From: Atribacterota bacterium
Lineage (GTDB): Bacteria; Atribacterota; Phoenicimicrobiia; Phoenicimicrobiales; Stramentimicrobiaceae
Reading direction: 5' to 3'
Assembly: GCA_040774925.1 (NCBI GenBank)
Contig: JAXGTM010000001.1
Span: 1-39,113, forward strand
DNA length: 39,113 nucleotides
Made by a program: the position numbers and the translations under genes. Below the pieces are notes generated by a model. It was given only the letters and a program-made list of their open reading frames with translations, was not told where the DNA came from and did not search any database. Shown here piece by piece: positions 16,683-23,376 of the stretch. Every line of letters starts with the position of its first letter. Positions within the stretch are counted from its first letter, which is position 1.

Positions 16683-17741
16683 ATGGATTTAACAATACAG
16701 GAAGTTTTGAGAAAAGCCAGGGAAATGGGGGCATCAGATGTCCATTTTAATGTTGGTATTCCACCGGTTTTCCGTTTAAATGGCAAATTAATAAAAAGTG
16801 ACTACCCCCTTTTAGATGCAGAGGGTGTACATAAGATTATTTACAGTATTTTATCAGATAAGCAGAAAGAGATGTTTGAAAAAGATAGACAGTTGGATTT
16901 TGCTTATGAGATACCAGGAGTGTCACGATTTAGAATAAACATTTTCCGTCATAGACTCGGGGAAGCGGCGGCAATAAGATTAATACCGACAAAAATAATG
17001 ACAATTGAACAGCTCGGGCTACCGGATATTATCCGTACCTTAGCAGAACATACCAGAGGGATTGTCCTTGTTACAGGACCAACCGGAAGTGGCAAATCAA
17101 CTACTCTGGCGGCACTTATAGATATAATTAACAGAACCCGTTATGAGCATATCATATCAATAGAAGACCCTATTGAATATATCCATTTTCACAAAAATTG
17201 TGTTATCTCACAAAGAGAAATAGGAGACCACACAGACTCTTTTGCCAGCGCTCTAAGGGTTGCTCTTAGAGAAGACCCTGATGTTATACTGGTTGGAGAG
17301 ATGAGGGACCTTGAAACTATCTCTATGGCTTTAAGGGCTGCGGAAACCGGACACCTTGTATTTTCAACACTTCACACAAACAGCGCTGCCGAAACCATTG
17401 AACGAATTGTTAATGCTTTTCCAGCGCATCAACAGGCGCAGGCAAGACTGCAGGTAGCAGGGACTATTGAGGCGGTCATTGCACAGACTCTTATTCCAAC
17501 TGCTGATGGTCAGGGCAGGGTAGCAGCAGCCGAACTGATGCTTGCTACCCCTGCAATACGTAATCTCATAAGAGATGAGAAAATATACCAAATTCCATCA
17601 AGTATTCAGATTAGTAGAAAAATTGGCATGCAGAGTCTTGATCAATCATTAAAAGATTTACTGATGGCAGGAAAAATTACCAGAGATGATGCTGTTAAAA
17701 GAGCAATAAATAAAAAGGCTTTTCTTGACTATTTAGAATAA
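16683..17741 (+). CDS. pilT: Type IV pilus retraction ATPase PilT, paralogue 2
   Basis: Walker A GPTGSGKST, VILVGEMRD, GHLVFSTLHTN, canonical AIRNLIRD(E) signature. About 352 aa. Confidence 0.9.
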   Translation: MDLTIQEVLRKAREMGASDVHFNVGIPPVFRLNGKLIKSDYPLLDAEGVHKIIYSILSDKQKEMFEKDRQLDFAYEIPGVSRFRINIFRHRLGEAAAIRLIPTKIMTIEQLGLPDIIRTLAEHTRGIVLVTGPTGSGKSTTLAALIDIINRTRYEHIISIEDPIEYIHFHKNCVISQREIGDHTDSFASALRVALREDPDVILVGEMRDLETISMALRAAETGHLVFSTLHTNSAAETIERIVNAFPAHQQAQARLQVAGTIEAVIAQTLIPTADGQGRVAAAELMLATPAIRNLIRDEKIYQIPSSIQISRKIGMQSLDQSLKDLLMAGKITRDDAVKRAINKKAFLDYLE

Positions 17742-17835
17742 TATAATATTTTGACTTTATGAACAGGATTGAGTAAAATAACTGCAGTATTTGTTCTTTT
17801 GATATCTTAAAAAAATATGAATCGTTAATAGATTT

Positions 17836-18042
17836 TTAAGGGAAAGTAGATTGCCGGTTATGGTAATTGAACGACATCTCTTAAATAATATCTGGAATAT
17901 TATTTCATAATCTATACGTTACATTGCGTTAATAAAATGAGCGGAATGGAAAGTAAATATCCATTCAATGAGGGTGGCACCACGAGAAGAAATTTTCGTC
18001 CCTGATAGTACTATTATCTATAATAGAACTATCAGGTTTTTT
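17836..18042 (+). promoter_or_regulatory. T-box leader (tRNA-sensing transcription attenuator) upstream of hisS
   Basis: Specifier-loop-like helix: TTAAGGGA (17836-17843) pairs with TCTCTTAA (17877-17884). It encloses AAGUAG on the 5' side and UGAACGACA on the 3' side. Stem II-like hairpin AAATAATAT/ATATTATTT. Stem III GAATGGA/TCCATTC. T-box core AATGAGGGTGGCACCACG (17967-17984). Antiterminator helix ACGAGAA-GAAA-TTTTCGT. Terminator CCTGATAGT (18001-18009) / ACTATCAGG (18028-18036) plus T6 (18037-18042). Confidence 0.85.
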
Positions 18043-18157
18043 GTTTATTATAACCCTAAGAAAAAAACGAAATTTGTGATAACTCTTTTTTAAAATAGCT
18101 TATATTTTAGTGAAACAGTTTCATTTATAGAATAAAACATTTTCAAAGGAGAAAATA

Positions 18158-19438
18158 TTGTTAACAAGTTCACCGAAAGGGACCAACGATATACTTCCCG
18201 TTCAGATAGACCAATGGTACTATCTGGAAGAAGTAATAAAGAAAGTATTGCAAAATTATGGTTACAGAGAGATTAGAACACCTGCTTTTGAGCATATAGA
18301 ATTATTCATCAGAGGCATAGGTGAGGCGACCGATATAGTGAAAAAAGAGATGTTTACTTTTCAGGATCGAAAAGGAAGGAATCTCGCTCTTCGCCCTGAA
18401 GGGACTGCACCTGTTGTCAGAGCCTATCTCGAACATAGTCTCGGCAGAGACAATCCAATAAGTAAATTATTTTATATTGGTAATATGTTTCGCTGTGAAA
18501 AACCACAGGCTGGAAGGTATCGCCAATTTAGCCAGTTCGGTTCAGAGGCTATCGGTTCTTTTTTGCCTGTAATAGATGCCGAAATAATCTCTTCCTGTTT
18601 AGCCGTCTATGAGGAGTTAGGATTATCTAATTTGCAATTGATGTTGAATAGTGTTGGATGTAGAAAATGCAGACCATTATATATAAAGAGTCTAAAAGAA
18701 TATTTTCATGACAAGAGAGATATGCTCTGCGTCGATTGCAAGCAGCGTTATGAAGAAAATCCGTTGAGGATACTTGATTGCAAAAAAGAGAAATGCCGCA
18801 TAGTAATTGACAAATCTCCTTCTATTTTTGACTACTTATGTGAAGAATGTGCTACACATTTTAATGAATTACAAAAATATCTGAATGAATTAGGAATAAG
18901 CTATCAGATTAATCCGCAACTGGTCAGAGGATTGGATTATTATACTAAAACTGCTTTTGAGGTAATATCAGGAGAACTGGGGGCTCAGAATGCCATTGGG
19001 GGAGGCGGAAGATATGATTATCTGGCGGAAGAGCTTGGCGGTAAACCTACTCCGGCTGTTGGATTCGCAGCAGGAATGGAAAGAGTTCTGGAAACAATGG
19101 CAAAACAGGCAATAAAAATACCTGCCTGGAAGGGAATAAATGTCTTTTTAGCTGTGACCGATAAAGAGCAGAGCAGCCTTGCATTGTCTATTGCTAATCA
19201 GATAAGGGAAAAAGGAATATCAGCTGAATTGGATTTCCTTGGTAAAAGTTTGAAGGCACAGATGAGAATGGCAAATAAATTACAGGTGCCATTTGCTGTC
19301 ATTTTAGGACAGGAAGAGTTAAAAAATAATCAAGTAACTATCAAAGATATGCTAAAGGGAACACAGGAAGAGATATACCTGAAAGATATAATCTCATATT
19401 TGCAGAAGCTTATACATAAAGATAATTATAGTAAATAG
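18158..19438 (+). CDS. hisS: Histidine--tRNA ligase
   Basis: AAGGAG RBS then TTG start. PKGTNDILP N-terminus, class II motifs (FRCEKPQAGRYRQF, GGGGRYD), HisRS Cys-rich insertion, C-terminal anticodon-binding domain. Confidence 0.95.
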   Translation: MLTSSPKGTNDILPVQIDQWYYLEEVIKKVLQNYGYREIRTPAFEHIELFIRGIGEATDIVKKEMFTFQDRKGRNLALRPEGTAPVVRAYLEHSLGRDNPISKLFYIGNMFRCEKPQAGRYRQFSQFGSEAIGSFLPVIDAEIISSCLAVYEELGLSNLQLMLNSVGCRKCRPLYIKSLKEYFHDKRDMLCVDCKQRYEENPLRILDCKKEKCRIVIDKSPSIFDYLCEECATHFNELQKYLNELGISYQINPQLVRGLDYYTKTAFEVISGELGAQNAIGGGGRYDYLAEELGGKPTPAVGFAAGMERVLETMAKQAIKIPAWKGINVFLAVTDKEQSSLALSIANQIREKGISAELDFLGKSLKAQMRMANKLQVPFAVILGQEELKNNQVTIKDMLKGTQEEIYLKDIISYLQKLIHKDNYSK

Positions 19439-19498: not shown

Positions 19499-20794
19499 AT
19501 GAAAGAGGTAATAATAGCAGAGATAGGAAATTATGAAGGTGAACTCGTTTCAATCAAAGGCTGGCTTTACAACCAGCGGTCCAGCGGTAAAATAAAGTTT
19601 ATGATTATCAGAGATGGAACAGGTTTTTTACAGGGAACTCTGGTTAAAAGCGAAATGGAGGAAGAATATTTTAACTTACTGGATGAGTTAAATCATGAAT
19701 CTTCTATCATAGTTGAAGGTATTGTAAAAAAGGAGCAGAGAGCGCCTAGTGGCTTCGAGATGCTGGTAAAAACAATAAAGGTAGTACAGAATGCTGAAGA
19801 GGACTATCCCATCTCTTTGAAAAAACATGGTGTTGGTTTTTTAATGAATTACCGTCACCTTTGGATAAGAACTGAGAGGCAAAATGCAATATTGAGAATC
19901 AGGGTAGAAATAGTTAAAGCTATCCACCACTTCCTTCAGAAAAAAGGCTTTTATCTAATCGAATCACCTATACTGACTCCTGCTGCCTGTGAAGGAACAA
20001 CCACTCTGTTTGAAACAGATTATTTTGGAGATAAAGCCTATCTAACTCAGAGCGGACAGCTTTACAATGAAGCATCTGCAATGGCTTTTGGAAAAGTATA
20101 TTGTTTTGGTCCAACTTTCAGGGCTGAAAAGTCTAAAACAAGAAGGCATCTAATGGAATTCTGGATGGTAGAGCCGGAGGCTGCCTATTTTGATTTCAAT
20201 GATAATAATCAATTACAGGGAGAATTGATTGTAAATATAGTTGAACATGTTTTACGGCATTGTACTATGGAATTAAAAGTGTTGAAGAGGGATATTTCGG
20301 CATTAGAAAAAATAAAATCTCCTTTCCCTTATATTTCATATGATGATGCAATAAAACTTATCCAGAAAGAAGGCAGTACAACTAAATGGGGAGATGACCT
20401 TGGTGGAGAGGATGAAACGATTATTTCACAGCAATTCGATAAACCAGTCTTTATACATCACTTCCCCACTGTATGCAAGGCTTTTTATATGAATCCTGAT
20501 CCTGACAGACCTGAAACAGTGCTGGGTGCCGACCTGATAGCGCCTCAGGGATATGGAGAGATAATAGGCGGGGGAGAACGGATACATGATTACAATCTTA
20601 TCAAACAGAGAATTAAAGAACATAATTTGCCAGAAGAAGATTATCAGTGGTATATAGACTTGAGAAAATACGGTTCCGTTCCTCATTCAGGATTTGGATT
20701 GGGAATTGAAAGAACAGTTGCCTGGATATGTAATCTTACTCATATAAGAGAAACAATTCCTTTTCCAAGGATGCTGAATAAGATTTACCCTTAA
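19499..20794 (+). CDS. asnS: Asparagine--tRNA ligase
   Basis: AAGGAGG RBS. About 431 aa class IIb enzyme with the AsnRS-type motif GPTFRAEKSKTRRHLMEFWMVEPE, KAFYM, and C-terminal GFGLGIERTV. Confidence 0.9.
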   Translation: MKEVIIAEIGNYEGELVSIKGWLYNQRSSGKIKFMIIRDGTGFLQGTLVKSEMEEEYFNLLDELNHESSIIVEGIVKKEQRAPSGFEMLVKTIKVVQNAEEDYPISLKKHGVGFLMNYRHLWIRTERQNAILRIRVEIVKAIHHFLQKKGFYLIESPILTPAACEGTTTLFETDYFGDKAYLTQSGQLYNEASAMAFGKVYCFGPTFRAEKSKTRRHLMEFWMVEPEAAYFDFNDNNQLQGELIVNIVEHVLRHCTMELKVLKRDISALEKIKSPFPYISYDDAIKLIQKEGSTTKWGDDLGGEDETIISQQFDKPVFIHHFPTVCKAFYMNPDPDRPETVLGADLIAPQGYGEIIGGGERIHDYNLIKQRIKEHNLPEEDYQWYIDLRKYGSVPHSGFGLGIERTVAWICNLTHIRETIPFPRMLNKIYP

Positions 20795-21138
20795 AAATAA
20801 TTACTATTTATATTTTTCGGCTTTTATTCGTAGATGCAGCAATAGGAATGACTCATCTCAATTTACGACCCAAAAAATATATTGGAATTATTAATTAAAA
20901 GACTTCCCTAAAAACATAATTAAGCATTTTGTTTTTATAAATATTTTTAATCTGAATTAATTTCGATATATTATAAGAATACTTTAGGTTATCTTATTTA
21001 GCTTTTACGGAACAGAACTAATTTTAATTAGATTTTCCTGAAGAAAAGGATGCTTCTAAAATCGGAAAAAACATAATTAAATAATTTTTTATCTCATTTT
21101 ATAATTTATATCAATATGAAATAAGGAGTGAACCAAAA

Positions 21139-22938
21139 ATGATTTTACCCGAAGAACAGAAAACCGCTTTACAAATCTGGAAAAGAACCCATAGTTGTGG
21201 TGAATTAAATAAAGAAAATACGGGTGAGACAGTTACCCTGATGGGGTGGGTAAATTCCCGCAGAGACCACGGTGGACTAATCTTTGTAGACCTCAGGGAT
21301 AGAGAAGGAAAGACTCAGGTCGTATTTGACCCTGAAATATCACAAGATGCACATATAATGGCACATAAAATTCGTAATGAATATGTTATTGCAGTTAAAG
21401 GGAAAGTTTTTCCCCGTGGAAAAGATGCCATTAATCCAAATTTAAAGACCGGTGAAATTGAAGTTAAAGTACACGAAATGAGAATATTAAACCAATCAGA
21501 AACGCCGCCATTTAGTCTGAATGATTATTCAGAAATTGGAGACGATTTGCGTTTAAGGTATCGTTTTCTTGATCTGAGGAGACCTGAGATGCAGGAGAAT
21601 ATTATTTTACGCCACAAAGTAGCCCTGTTGATTAGAAACTTTTTGAGTGGCAGGGGTTTTCTCGAAATTGAAACACCGTTTTTAACCAGAAGTACACCAG
21701 AAGGCGCCAGAGACTATATTGTACCGAGCAGAGTTAATCCGGGGAAATTTTATGCACTTCCTCAGTCACCACAACTTTTTAAGCAGTTACTGATGATTAG
21801 CGGTTTTGATAAATATTTCCAGATTGTAAGGTGTTTCAGGGATGAAGATCTCCGGGCTGACAGGGCACCTGAGTTTACCCAGCTTGATATGGAAATGTCA
21901 TTCATTGAACGTGATGACCTATTCAGTCTGATTGAGGATCTAATGACATATCTTTTTAAAGAAGTTCTGGGTATTGAGATTGAAAAACCATTCCCCAGAT
22001 ATGATTATAATGATGTCATGTCTAAATATGGTATAGACAAGCCTGATTTAAGATATGGTATGGAGATTCAGGATCTGAATGAAATATTTAAAAACACTGA
22101 TTTTACGGCCTTTTCAGAGGTCATAGCATCAGGAGGGAAGATAGGTGCCATAAAAACAGAACAGCCTGAAAAATTTTCTCGTAAAAATATTGATGACCTT
22201 GAAATCTACATAAAATCATTTGGATTAGAACGCATGGCATATATCCGTTTCAAAGATGATAATCAGATCCAATCATCTATTGCGAAATATATAAACGATG
22301 AAGAAATCTCCGCTCTGAAAGATAAGGTTCAGGCAAAACCTGGAGATCTGCTCTTCGTCGTAGCTGGAAATACTGACACAGTAAATGAAGCCCTGGGTAT
22401 GTTACGGATAAAGCTGGCAAATACATTAAAGATTATTCCTGAAGGAGAGTACAATTTTTTATGGGTAACCAACTTTCCTTTATTTGAATACTCAAAGACC
22501 GAAAAGAGATATTCTTCTATGCACCATCCCTTTACTGCACCAGTAGACGAAGATATTCCCATGCTTGAGAGCAACCCTTTTCAAGCCCGTTCTAAAGCTT
22601 ATGATTTAGTCTTGAATGGTAATGAAGTCGGTGGTGGCAGTATTCGTATACATCGGACTGAATTGCAGCAAAAAATCTTTGATTTACTGGGGATTAATGA
22701 AATAGAAGCAAAACAGAAATTCGGTTTCCTGCTGGAGGCTTTACAGTATGGTGCCCCACCACATGGCGGTATTGCTTTTGGTATGGATAGACTGACAATG
22801 ATATTGGCAAACGCCACCTCTATCCGTGAGGTTATCGCTTTCCCAAAAACACAAAGAGCGACCTGTATGTTGACAGGTGCTCCCGCTGAAGTCAGTCCAG
22901 AACAACTGAAAGAATTACACTTGAAAATAGACCTTTAA
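21139..22938 (+). CDS. aspS: Aspartate--tRNA ligase, bacterial type with GAD insertion domain
   Basis: AAGGAG RBS. 599 aa. GWVNSRRDHGGLIFVDLRD, QSPQLFKQLLM, FRDEDLRADRAPEFTQLD, GGGSIRIH, HGGIAFGMDRL. Confidence 0.95.
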   Translation: MILPEEQKTALQIWKRTHSCGELNKENTGETVTLMGWVNSRRDHGGLIFVDLRDREGKTQVVFDPEISQDAHIMAHKIRNEYVIAVKGKVFPRGKDAINPNLKTGEIEVKVHEMRILNQSETPPFSLNDYSEIGDDLRLRYRFLDLRRPEMQENIILRHKVALLIRNFLSGRGFLEIETPFLTRSTPEGARDYIVPSRVNPGKFYALPQSPQLFKQLLMISGFDKYFQIVRCFRDEDLRADRAPEFTQLDMEMSFIERDDLFSLIEDLMTYLFKEVLGIEIEKPFPRYDYNDVMSKYGIDKPDLRYGMEIQDLNEIFKNTDFTAFSEVIASGGKIGAIKTEQPEKFSRKNIDDLEIYIKSFGLERMAYIRFKDDNQIQSSIAKYINDEEISALKDKVQAKPGDLLFVVAGNTDTVNEALGMLRIKLANTLKIIPEGEYNFLWVTNFPLFEYSKTEKRYSSMHHPFTAPVDEDIPMLESNPFQARSKAYDLVLNGNEVGGGSIRIHRTELQQKIFDLLGINEIEAKQKFGFLLEALQYGAPPHGGIAFGMDRLTMILANATSIREVIAFPKTQRATCMLTGAPAEVSPEQLKELHLKIDL

Positions 22939-23014: not shown

Positions 23015-23235
23015 AAAGTGTGACAACCGATAAGTTACCCTGCTGTGAACGCTTAACTGTATAAGTTTTGACCCAACACTTTTTAAAAAGGTAATCGACC
23101 TCCGAATGTGTAATGCAAGCCTGTGGTTCCCAAGAGGGTTACCTAAGATTAGCAGAGATGTTAATTAACTGGAAGCATAAAGCACTCGGGTAGATATCCA
23201 CCTGTTTGAGGGGTCGGTATCAAAACTTGTAGTTG
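23015..23235 (+). ncRNA. ssrS: Putative 6S RNA (SsrS); boundaries approximate
   Basis: About 220 nt with no plausible ORF, directly downstream of the promoter above. Extended imperfect 5'/3' complementarity (for example ACCGA 23027-23031 with TCGGT 23214-23218, CCC 23038-23040 with GGGG 23210-23213) and an apical helix (GGTAA..CCTC with GAGGGTTACC). Sits immediately upstream of the 5-formyl-THF cyclo-ligase gene, the classical ssrS-ygfA linkage. Confidence 0.55.
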
Positions 23236-23376
23236 GCGACATGGCGGGGTTATTCTTTATTTTAACCATATACCCAATTTATTTAATGGCTGTCAAAAAG
23301 TTTCATAAGTATCAAAAGTTTCAGAATATATAGAGTAAATCTACAATTCTATTGACAAGATATTGTTAGTTGTATT

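Follow-up and report, generated by a model that had tools for sequence, protein, structure and literature searches.

A stripped-down T-box leader ahead of hisS in an Atribacterota bacterium most likely reads tRNA-Asp rather than tRNA-His

The leader ahead of hisS in the window (the whole 39,113-nt stretch of Atribacterota DNA that was analysed) is a real but stripped-down T-box, most likely reading uncharged tRNA-Asp and not tRNA-His. On the basis of sequence and structural models, we consider it highly probable that the segment from about 17828 to 18042 is a T-box riboswitch of the terminator type that senses uncharged tRNA-Asp. Fit to the family model, specifier register, tRNA discriminator bases, conservation and covariation were computed; tRNA binding, antitermination, co-transcription of aspS and the start of transcription are what we infer.

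The genome of the window, G000, is a MAG of 320 contigs and 86% completeness with a GC content of ~ 30-35%, and belongs to an AT-rich lineage. The leader lies in a gap of 416 nt between pilT (16683-17741) and hisS. Histidine--tRNA ligase is encoded by hisS at 18158-19438 on the + strand (TIGR00442, 502 bits), with a TTG start after AAAGGAG. It is followed on the same strand by asnS for asparagine--tRNA ligase (19499-20794; NF003037, 569 bits) and by aspS for a bacterial-type aspartate--tRNA ligase (21139-22938; NF001750, 870 bits), and each of the three genes is single-copy in the genome. The SD of hisS, at about 18146-18152, is located outside the T-box switch, and the terminator hairpin with its U-tract ends 115 nt before the start codon. 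A consensus scan returned a candidate sigma-70-type promoter at 17751-17779 on the + strand (TTGACT, 17 nt, TAAAAT; 10/12 matches), which lies ahead of the outer helix P0, a position that P0 demands.

The spacer between asnS and aspS (20795-21138, 344 nt) displays no Rfam match, no second leader ahead of aspS and no + strand terminator; at this length, it could hold a separate promoter for aspS. Across the loci compared (the window at 20795-21138, L075, L076, L078, L080 and L106), such spacers measure 120-680 nt, are unconserved and dense in short lineage-specific repeats, and are a frequent assembly break point. A repeat-rich insert of ~ 600 nt also separates the T-box terminator from hisS in G003 and G006 (repeat inserts at L016:900-1490 and L135). 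Downstream of aspS, a 6S RNA (23034-23254, + strand; RF00013, 74.9 bits, above the cut-off) is situated between aspS and the gene for 5-formyl-THF cyclo-ligase.

Scanned at the gathering thresholds of Rfam, the window yields only this 6S RNA and no T-box. With permissive filters in a gap scan, RF00230 matches 17827-18006 with 75.4 bits (E 1.3e-16) and the whole model covered, a score below the curated gathering cut-off of 93. Since 11 of the 12 further T-boxes in G000 likewise score below this cut-off, low scores appear to be a property of the AT-rich lineage. The leader shares with class I T-boxes (RF00230) the S-turn specifier loop, the CGUUA element, Stem III, the T-box sequence with its UGGN bulge and the terminator. 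In contrast to that class, it stays below the gathering score, aligns poorly at Stem II and lacks the distal Stem I and the K-turn.

The 3' side of the specifier loop, U17868-G-A-A-C-G-A-C-A17876, offers GAC (Asp) at 17873-17875 on the + strand, complementary to the GUC anticodon of tRNA-Asp; the triplets AAC (17870-17872) and CAU (17875-17877) are present in G000 as well. The first-pass annotation had located all three triplets, A17876 and UGGC (17975-17978) correctly, and had taken GAC to be in the canonical specifier position. The check that it proposed, alignment to RF00230, fixes the register in this way, with GAC followed by A17876, and not CAU, in the slot. The model leaves the eight positions GAA-C-GAC-A (17869-17876) unpaired with high posterior probability and pairs UCUC (17877-17880) with GGGA (17840-17843). 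A thermodynamic fold of 17828-17916 agrees, as only GACA (17873-17876) remains unpaired before a 9-bp lower helix (z -2.9), and U17877, the U of CAU, sits within this helix, paired with A17843. Model alignment and independent fold thus both point at GAC with the purine A17876 as the specifier. The S-turn (AGUA/GAA), the codon and the 3' purine abutting the lower helix are kept in 18 family leaders, with the purine being A in 17/18 and G in 1/18.

The second determinant of tRNA identity is the discriminator base. Among the 35 tRNA genes of G000 (aragorn), tRNA-Asp(GUC) and tRNA-Asn(GUU) both end in G73-CCA, bearing out what had been predicted for them, and the C of UGGC in the hisS leader complements G73 of tRNA-Asp. 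A tRNA-His gene was not found in the 86%-complete G000 assembly by aragorn with default and relaxed settings or by a pattern search. In 40 relatives, a pattern search followed by aragorn placed tRNA-His(GUG) in a conserved cluster Pro-Gly-Arg-His-Arg-Lys-Leu. All 21 relative loci examined, six of them from the same genus, carry C73 (ending ...CGCUCAC-C73-CCA), in agreement with the earlier expectation of a tRNA-His without G73, here for the relatives, as the G000 gene is not assembled. With C73, a His-specific T-box would need UGGG. Of the two alternatives put forward in the first-pass annotation, the GAC register and the C73 of tRNA-His in relatives support the one that ties HisRS expression to the charging of tRNA-Asp.

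The remaining T-boxes of G000 offer an internal control. Read in the same RF00230 register, the codons of ten other T-boxes fit their downstream genes in 10/10 cases. These leaders (specifier/bulge) are GUC/UGGU before valS, CUC/UGGU before leuS, UUC/UGGU before pheS, AUC/UGGU before ileS, AUC/UGGU and CUC/UGGU each before ilvB, AGA/UGGC before argC, ACC/UGGA before hom, UCC/UGGC before a class-V aminotransferase gene (Ser-type) and GAA/UGGU before an amino-acid ABC permease gene. An eleventh leader, UGG/UGGC (Trp), has no downstream ORF on its contig. Wherever the tRNA was assembled, UGGN complements its discriminator (A73 for Val, Leu and Glu, G73 for Trp and Ser, U73 for Thr; six pairs). 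Against these ten fitting T-boxes, only the leader of hisS has a first gene whose amino acid differs from that of the specifier.

Several of the other leaders display features of their own. Distal Stem I is deleted in the valS, pheS, ileS and hom T-boxes (L001, L007, L009 and L012), where 30-51 model positions are reduced to 0-7 nt, and is kept in the Trp, Ser, Leu, Arg and ilv leaders of G000. The leuS leader (CUC, UGGU; G000:C78:5798-6094, L005:1501-1797) harbors a complete tRNA-Ala(GGC) gene in the loop of Stem III (C78:5968-6043, CCA encoded). DNA searches with this tRNA-containing leader gave matches in 26/26 genomes of both families; in genera g1, g4 and g7, matches run collinearly through the 5' part of the T-box, the tRNA and the core, and the tRNA lies on the same strand in 11/11 loci (aragorn). 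To our knowledge, a tRNA gene embedded in a T-box has not been described. An Ile-type T-box (G000:C255, L003:1501-1719) is followed ~ 45 nt later by a match resembling the Guanidine-I riboswitch (L003:1766-1871; 53 bits against a cut-off of 63); the pair precedes ilvB and could represent a tandem arrangement. A GC-rich Thr-type T-box (ACC/UGGA; G000:C284:119-339, L010) sits on a short contig of a composition unlike the rest of the genome, and this contig is probably a contaminant in the MAG.

The architecture of the hisS leader, all on the + strand, starts with the outer helix P0, in which AUAGAUU (17828-17834) pairs with AAUCUAU (17909-17915) to give 7 bp that are also present in the minimum-energy fold. 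P0 encloses Stem I and a variable hairpin. The lower helix of Stem I (17835-17843 with 17877-17885) is supported by both the RF00230 alignment and the fold, and it is continuous, without a K-turn: where the model has UGA...GGA, the leader has UUU...UUA. On the 5' side of the specifier loop lies AAGUA (17844-17848), of which AGUA, one half of the S-turn, is conserved in RF00230 and invariant in the family. The opposing GAA (17869-17871) is invariant too, and in relatives any of the four bases can follow it. Eight base pairs (17849-17856 with 17861-17868) make up the upper helix, which spans 17849-17868 and is closed by a loop of 4 nt. There is no distal tRNA-elbow platform, as 47 model positions are reduced to 6 nt in the RF00230 alignment with no AG-bulge/distal-loop, and per-sequence folds display the same absence in all family members. 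The second hairpin inside P0 (17886-17908), seen in per-sequence folds, is variable in sequence and present in relatives; it is weak in G000 (AU-only) and strong in G008, G013, G014 and G015.

Directly after P0 come a Stem IIA/B-type element, CGUUA...GCGUUA (17917-17931; aligned to the CGUUA region of RF00230), Stem III (17944-17966; RF00230 alignment) and the T-box sequence with the antiterminator (17971-18003). The latter folds with a 7-nt bulge, UGGCACC, that contains the UGGC at 17975-17978. The intrinsic terminator (18001-18042; stem 18001-18036, U-tract 18037-18042) folds with -25 kcal/mol (z -4.3) and is nearly invariant in relatives. Antiterminator and terminator are mutually exclusive and overlap in CCU only (18001-18003), that is, in 3 nt. 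As transcriptional T-boxes are said to need a long Stem I with an elbow-binding platform (PMC7583486), the hisS leader constitutes a structural variant. A more far-reaching reading would make this transcription-terminating leader, with its platform-less, K-turn-less Stem I and second hairpin nested in P0, a distinct structural class, in which P0 would replace Stem II, tRNA-Asp and tRNA-Asn would be captured without the elbow, and GAC may read both through a G-U pair. We regard this reading as unlikely.

Comparison with relatives extends the picture to 18 leaders from nine genera of family f1. GAC occupies the specifier slot in 15/18 and AAC in 3/18 (genera g2 and g3), while UGGC is found in every one of the 18. 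In both families of the order, hisS and asnS are linked, and the arrangement hisS-asnS-aspS is seen wherever contigs reach far enough, including G018, an AAC genome, after joining two overlapping contigs. To regard the insertion of asnS and the discriminator evidence as peculiar to this locus was therefore too strong, the former being order-wide and the latter shared by all family leaders. Family f2 is mostly without the leader and has hisS directly after pilT; an Asp T-box closer to the canonical form (GAC, UGGC, 91.6 bits) persists in one f2 genome. A model of the leader 5' domain is found once per genome in 17/21 other f1 genomes and gave no match in 34 genomes of the other phylum families f3-f7. 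In G013 (100% complete), hisS-asnS and a GAC leader are present, but the search for a bacterial-type aspS gave no match with an E-value of 1e-60 or lower; the contig may break there, the search may have missed the gene, or the AspRS may be of another type.

The helices were defined by hand and then tested for pairing and covariation; RNAalifold, applied to the full leader, predicted spurious long-range pairs and was discarded. In a MAFFT alignment of 16 leaders, 89.4% of cells are paired, compared to 33-44% with partners slid, and 11 pairs are changed on both sides, a count reached in 0/500 shuffles. Between genera, the 5' strand of the lower helix is out of step by one column in this alignment, a fault that is partly repaired in a model-fitted alignment. 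The model-fitted alignment (19 sequences, including one unrelated Val leader), which leans towards the structure, gives 89.9% paired cells and 13 double-changed pairs; slid partners reach 33-49% across alignments. P0 has 89-92% of its cells paired across relatives and is kept in G016 via three double changes (UAAGUUUU/AAAACUUA). Compensatory changes are found in all four modelled pairs of the Stem I lower helix (e.g., GAAGA/UCUUC in G006), and 4-5 pairs of the upper helix covary. In the Stem IIA/B-type element, GCGUUA is invariant and three pairs are kept at 96-100%. Conservation of the leader in 18 genomes with covarying helices indicates more than chance.

In the proposed mechanism, the GUC anticodon of uncharged tRNA-Asp would pair with GAC (17873-17875) in the minimal Stem I, and its free 3' end, G73-C-C-A, would pair with UGGC (17975-17978) in the antiterminator bulge. 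The 3'-end contact would stabilise the helix AGGG/CCCU against the terminator at 18001-18042, leading to read-through into hisS-asnS and probably aspS. Charged tRNA-Asp would be unable to make this contact, and transcription would stop. HisRS would have no sensor of its own, riding on the Asp signal or, in three relatives, on the Asn signal. GatB is present in 5/5 near-complete relatives, and a GatB fragment is found at a contig end in G000; AsnA was not found in the five near-complete relatives, nor was an AsnB above the curated cut-off or a bona fide AsnB. This gene content is consistent with de novo Asn-tRNA being made via AspRS and GatCAB. With such a route, uncharged tRNA-Asp and tRNA-Asn would report overlapping information, which in turn would explain how the sensor can be retuned by one base with the operon unchanged.

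Register slippage was the other alternative put forward at the outset: a leader slipping between AAC, GAC and CAU would let tRNA-Asn, tRNA-Asp and tRNA-His all induce the three-synthetase operon. All three codons are indeed present in G000, tRNA-Asn has the matching G73, and experiments on another T-box have demonstrated that the register can move by one base between two tRNAs (Saad et al. 2013, as summarised in PMC4052509 and PMC4574755). Conservation, however, makes slippage very improbable here. The base before GAC varies (C in 3, U in 5, G in 4 and A in 6 of the 18 leaders), and AAC, which overlaps the invariant S-turn GAA, thus has its third base C in only 3/18; the triplet is fortuitous, consisting of the last two S-turn bases and the variable C17872. 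CAU is confined to genus g1 (8/18 leaders), with CAA or CAG in 9/18 and CGU in 1/18 elsewhere. Its U belongs to the lower helix and is replaced by A or G in other genera, the base after it is C and not a purine, and tRNA-His with its C73 would clash with UGGC. Slippage is therefore unsupported, and the apparent three codons for three synthetases result incidentally from the invariant GAA, the codon, the purine and the U that closes the helix. Alternative registers were rejected as well: AAN at -3 is unconserved (AAY in 8/18, AAR in 10/18 leaders), and so is CAN at +2 as a His codon, with CAU in one genus only. The +1 register gives ACA or ACG (Thr) in 18/18 leaders, conserved only as a by-product, and the U73 of tRNA-Thr is incompatible with UGGC; the Thr-type T-box of hom uses UGGA.

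A single codon might instead serve two tRNAs, with GAC read fully by tRNA-Asp and, via a first-position G-U pair, by tRNA-Asn (GUU), so that Asp and Asn charging would be integrated. Several observations are compatible with this: both tRNAs carry G73, within the family GAC and AAC alternate ahead of the same operon, AspRS may be needed for both tRNAs given the presence of GatB with AsnA/AsnB not found, and codon-anticodon pairing takes place here without ribosome proofreading. Yet the idea is reached purely by reasoning, codon-anticodon geometry is believed to be checked by T-boxes that have a Stem II-type element, and three lineages would have had less reason to fix AAC if GAC already read tRNA-Asn; we hold dual reading to be improbable. 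Even less can be said for a decaying or constitutive relic that answers no tRNA any more, to which we give almost no credence. The missing platform and K-turn, the terminator-antiterminator overlap of merely 3 nt and the loss of the leader from most f2 genomes would fit decay, but the specifier, the purine, UGGC, the IIA/B element, the antiterminator and the terminator are invariant or covarying across nine genera, and several other G000 T-boxes with a short Stem I precede cognate genes.

The preferred reading, a hisS leader responding to tRNA-Asp, has a counterpart in Bacillota. The T-boxes of hisS-aspS operons in bacilli and lactobacilli carry GACAC in the specifier loop and are interpreted as reading mainly tRNA-Asp, as stated in a passage of PMC5313534 citing Gutierrez-Preciado 2009. 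T-box control of hisS-aspS was thus rightly described beforehand as a known theme, with the Asp reading published for Bacillota, and the S. aureus element is still called 'histidine T-box' in one paper (PMC7927825). As far as that passage portrays the elements of B. subtilis, lactobacilli and staphylococci, they and the present leader both precede an operon with hisS as its first gene and aspS among the others, and both hold GAC in the slot with a His codon overlapping its C (here in G000). Both would read mainly tRNA-Asp, with HisRS not induced by uncharged tRNA-His. The Atribacterota leader differs in its phylum, in having asnS between hisS and aspS, and in a Stem I that is minimal and enclosed by an outer helix. 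Instead of GACAC it displays GACAU in G000 and GACAA, GACAG, GACGU or AACAA in relatives, with the His overlap unconserved and some relatives switching to AAC.

Two further systems are instructive. In Clostridium acetobutylicum, the two-codon Asn/Glu T-box of the transamidation operon (Saad et al. 2012, 2013, as related in passages of PMC4052509 and PMC4574755) is likewise tied to Asx-tRNA metabolism and provides a precedent for the reading of neighbouring codons. In contrast to what is related there, the second and third codons of the hisS leader are unconserved and one of them mismatches the discriminator, which sets it apart from the two-codon type. The actinobacterial ileS T-boxes have an ultrashort Stem I and act translationally by SD sequestration (Sherwood et al. 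2015, as cited in PMC7583486). To the extent of that citation, they and the hisS leader both lack the interdigitated T-loop platform and keep the specifier loop and the IIA/B region. Unlike these Ile-reading translational elements, the hisS leader ends in an intrinsic terminator, would read Asp, has no canonical Stem II and encloses its Stem I in P0.

The wiring of HisRS to an Asp-type T-box is already known from Bacillus-type bacteria; what is new is that it occurs in the phylum Atribacterota, that a single family alternates between Asp and Asn, and that a leader of the terminator type has its minimal Stem I enclosed by an outer helix. The Bacillota oddity of HisRS under an Asp-type T-box would thereby extend to an uncultured phylum, in which one base change appears to retune the sensor from Asp to Asn with the operon unchanged. 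For T-box annotation, the first downstream gene is an unsafe guide, whereas the specifier together with UGGN is a safe one. The combination of a minimal Stem I with an intrinsic terminator runs against the rule that transcriptional T-boxes need the tRNA-elbow platform, which makes these leaders candidates for work on the minimum size at which a T-box is still kinetically competent.
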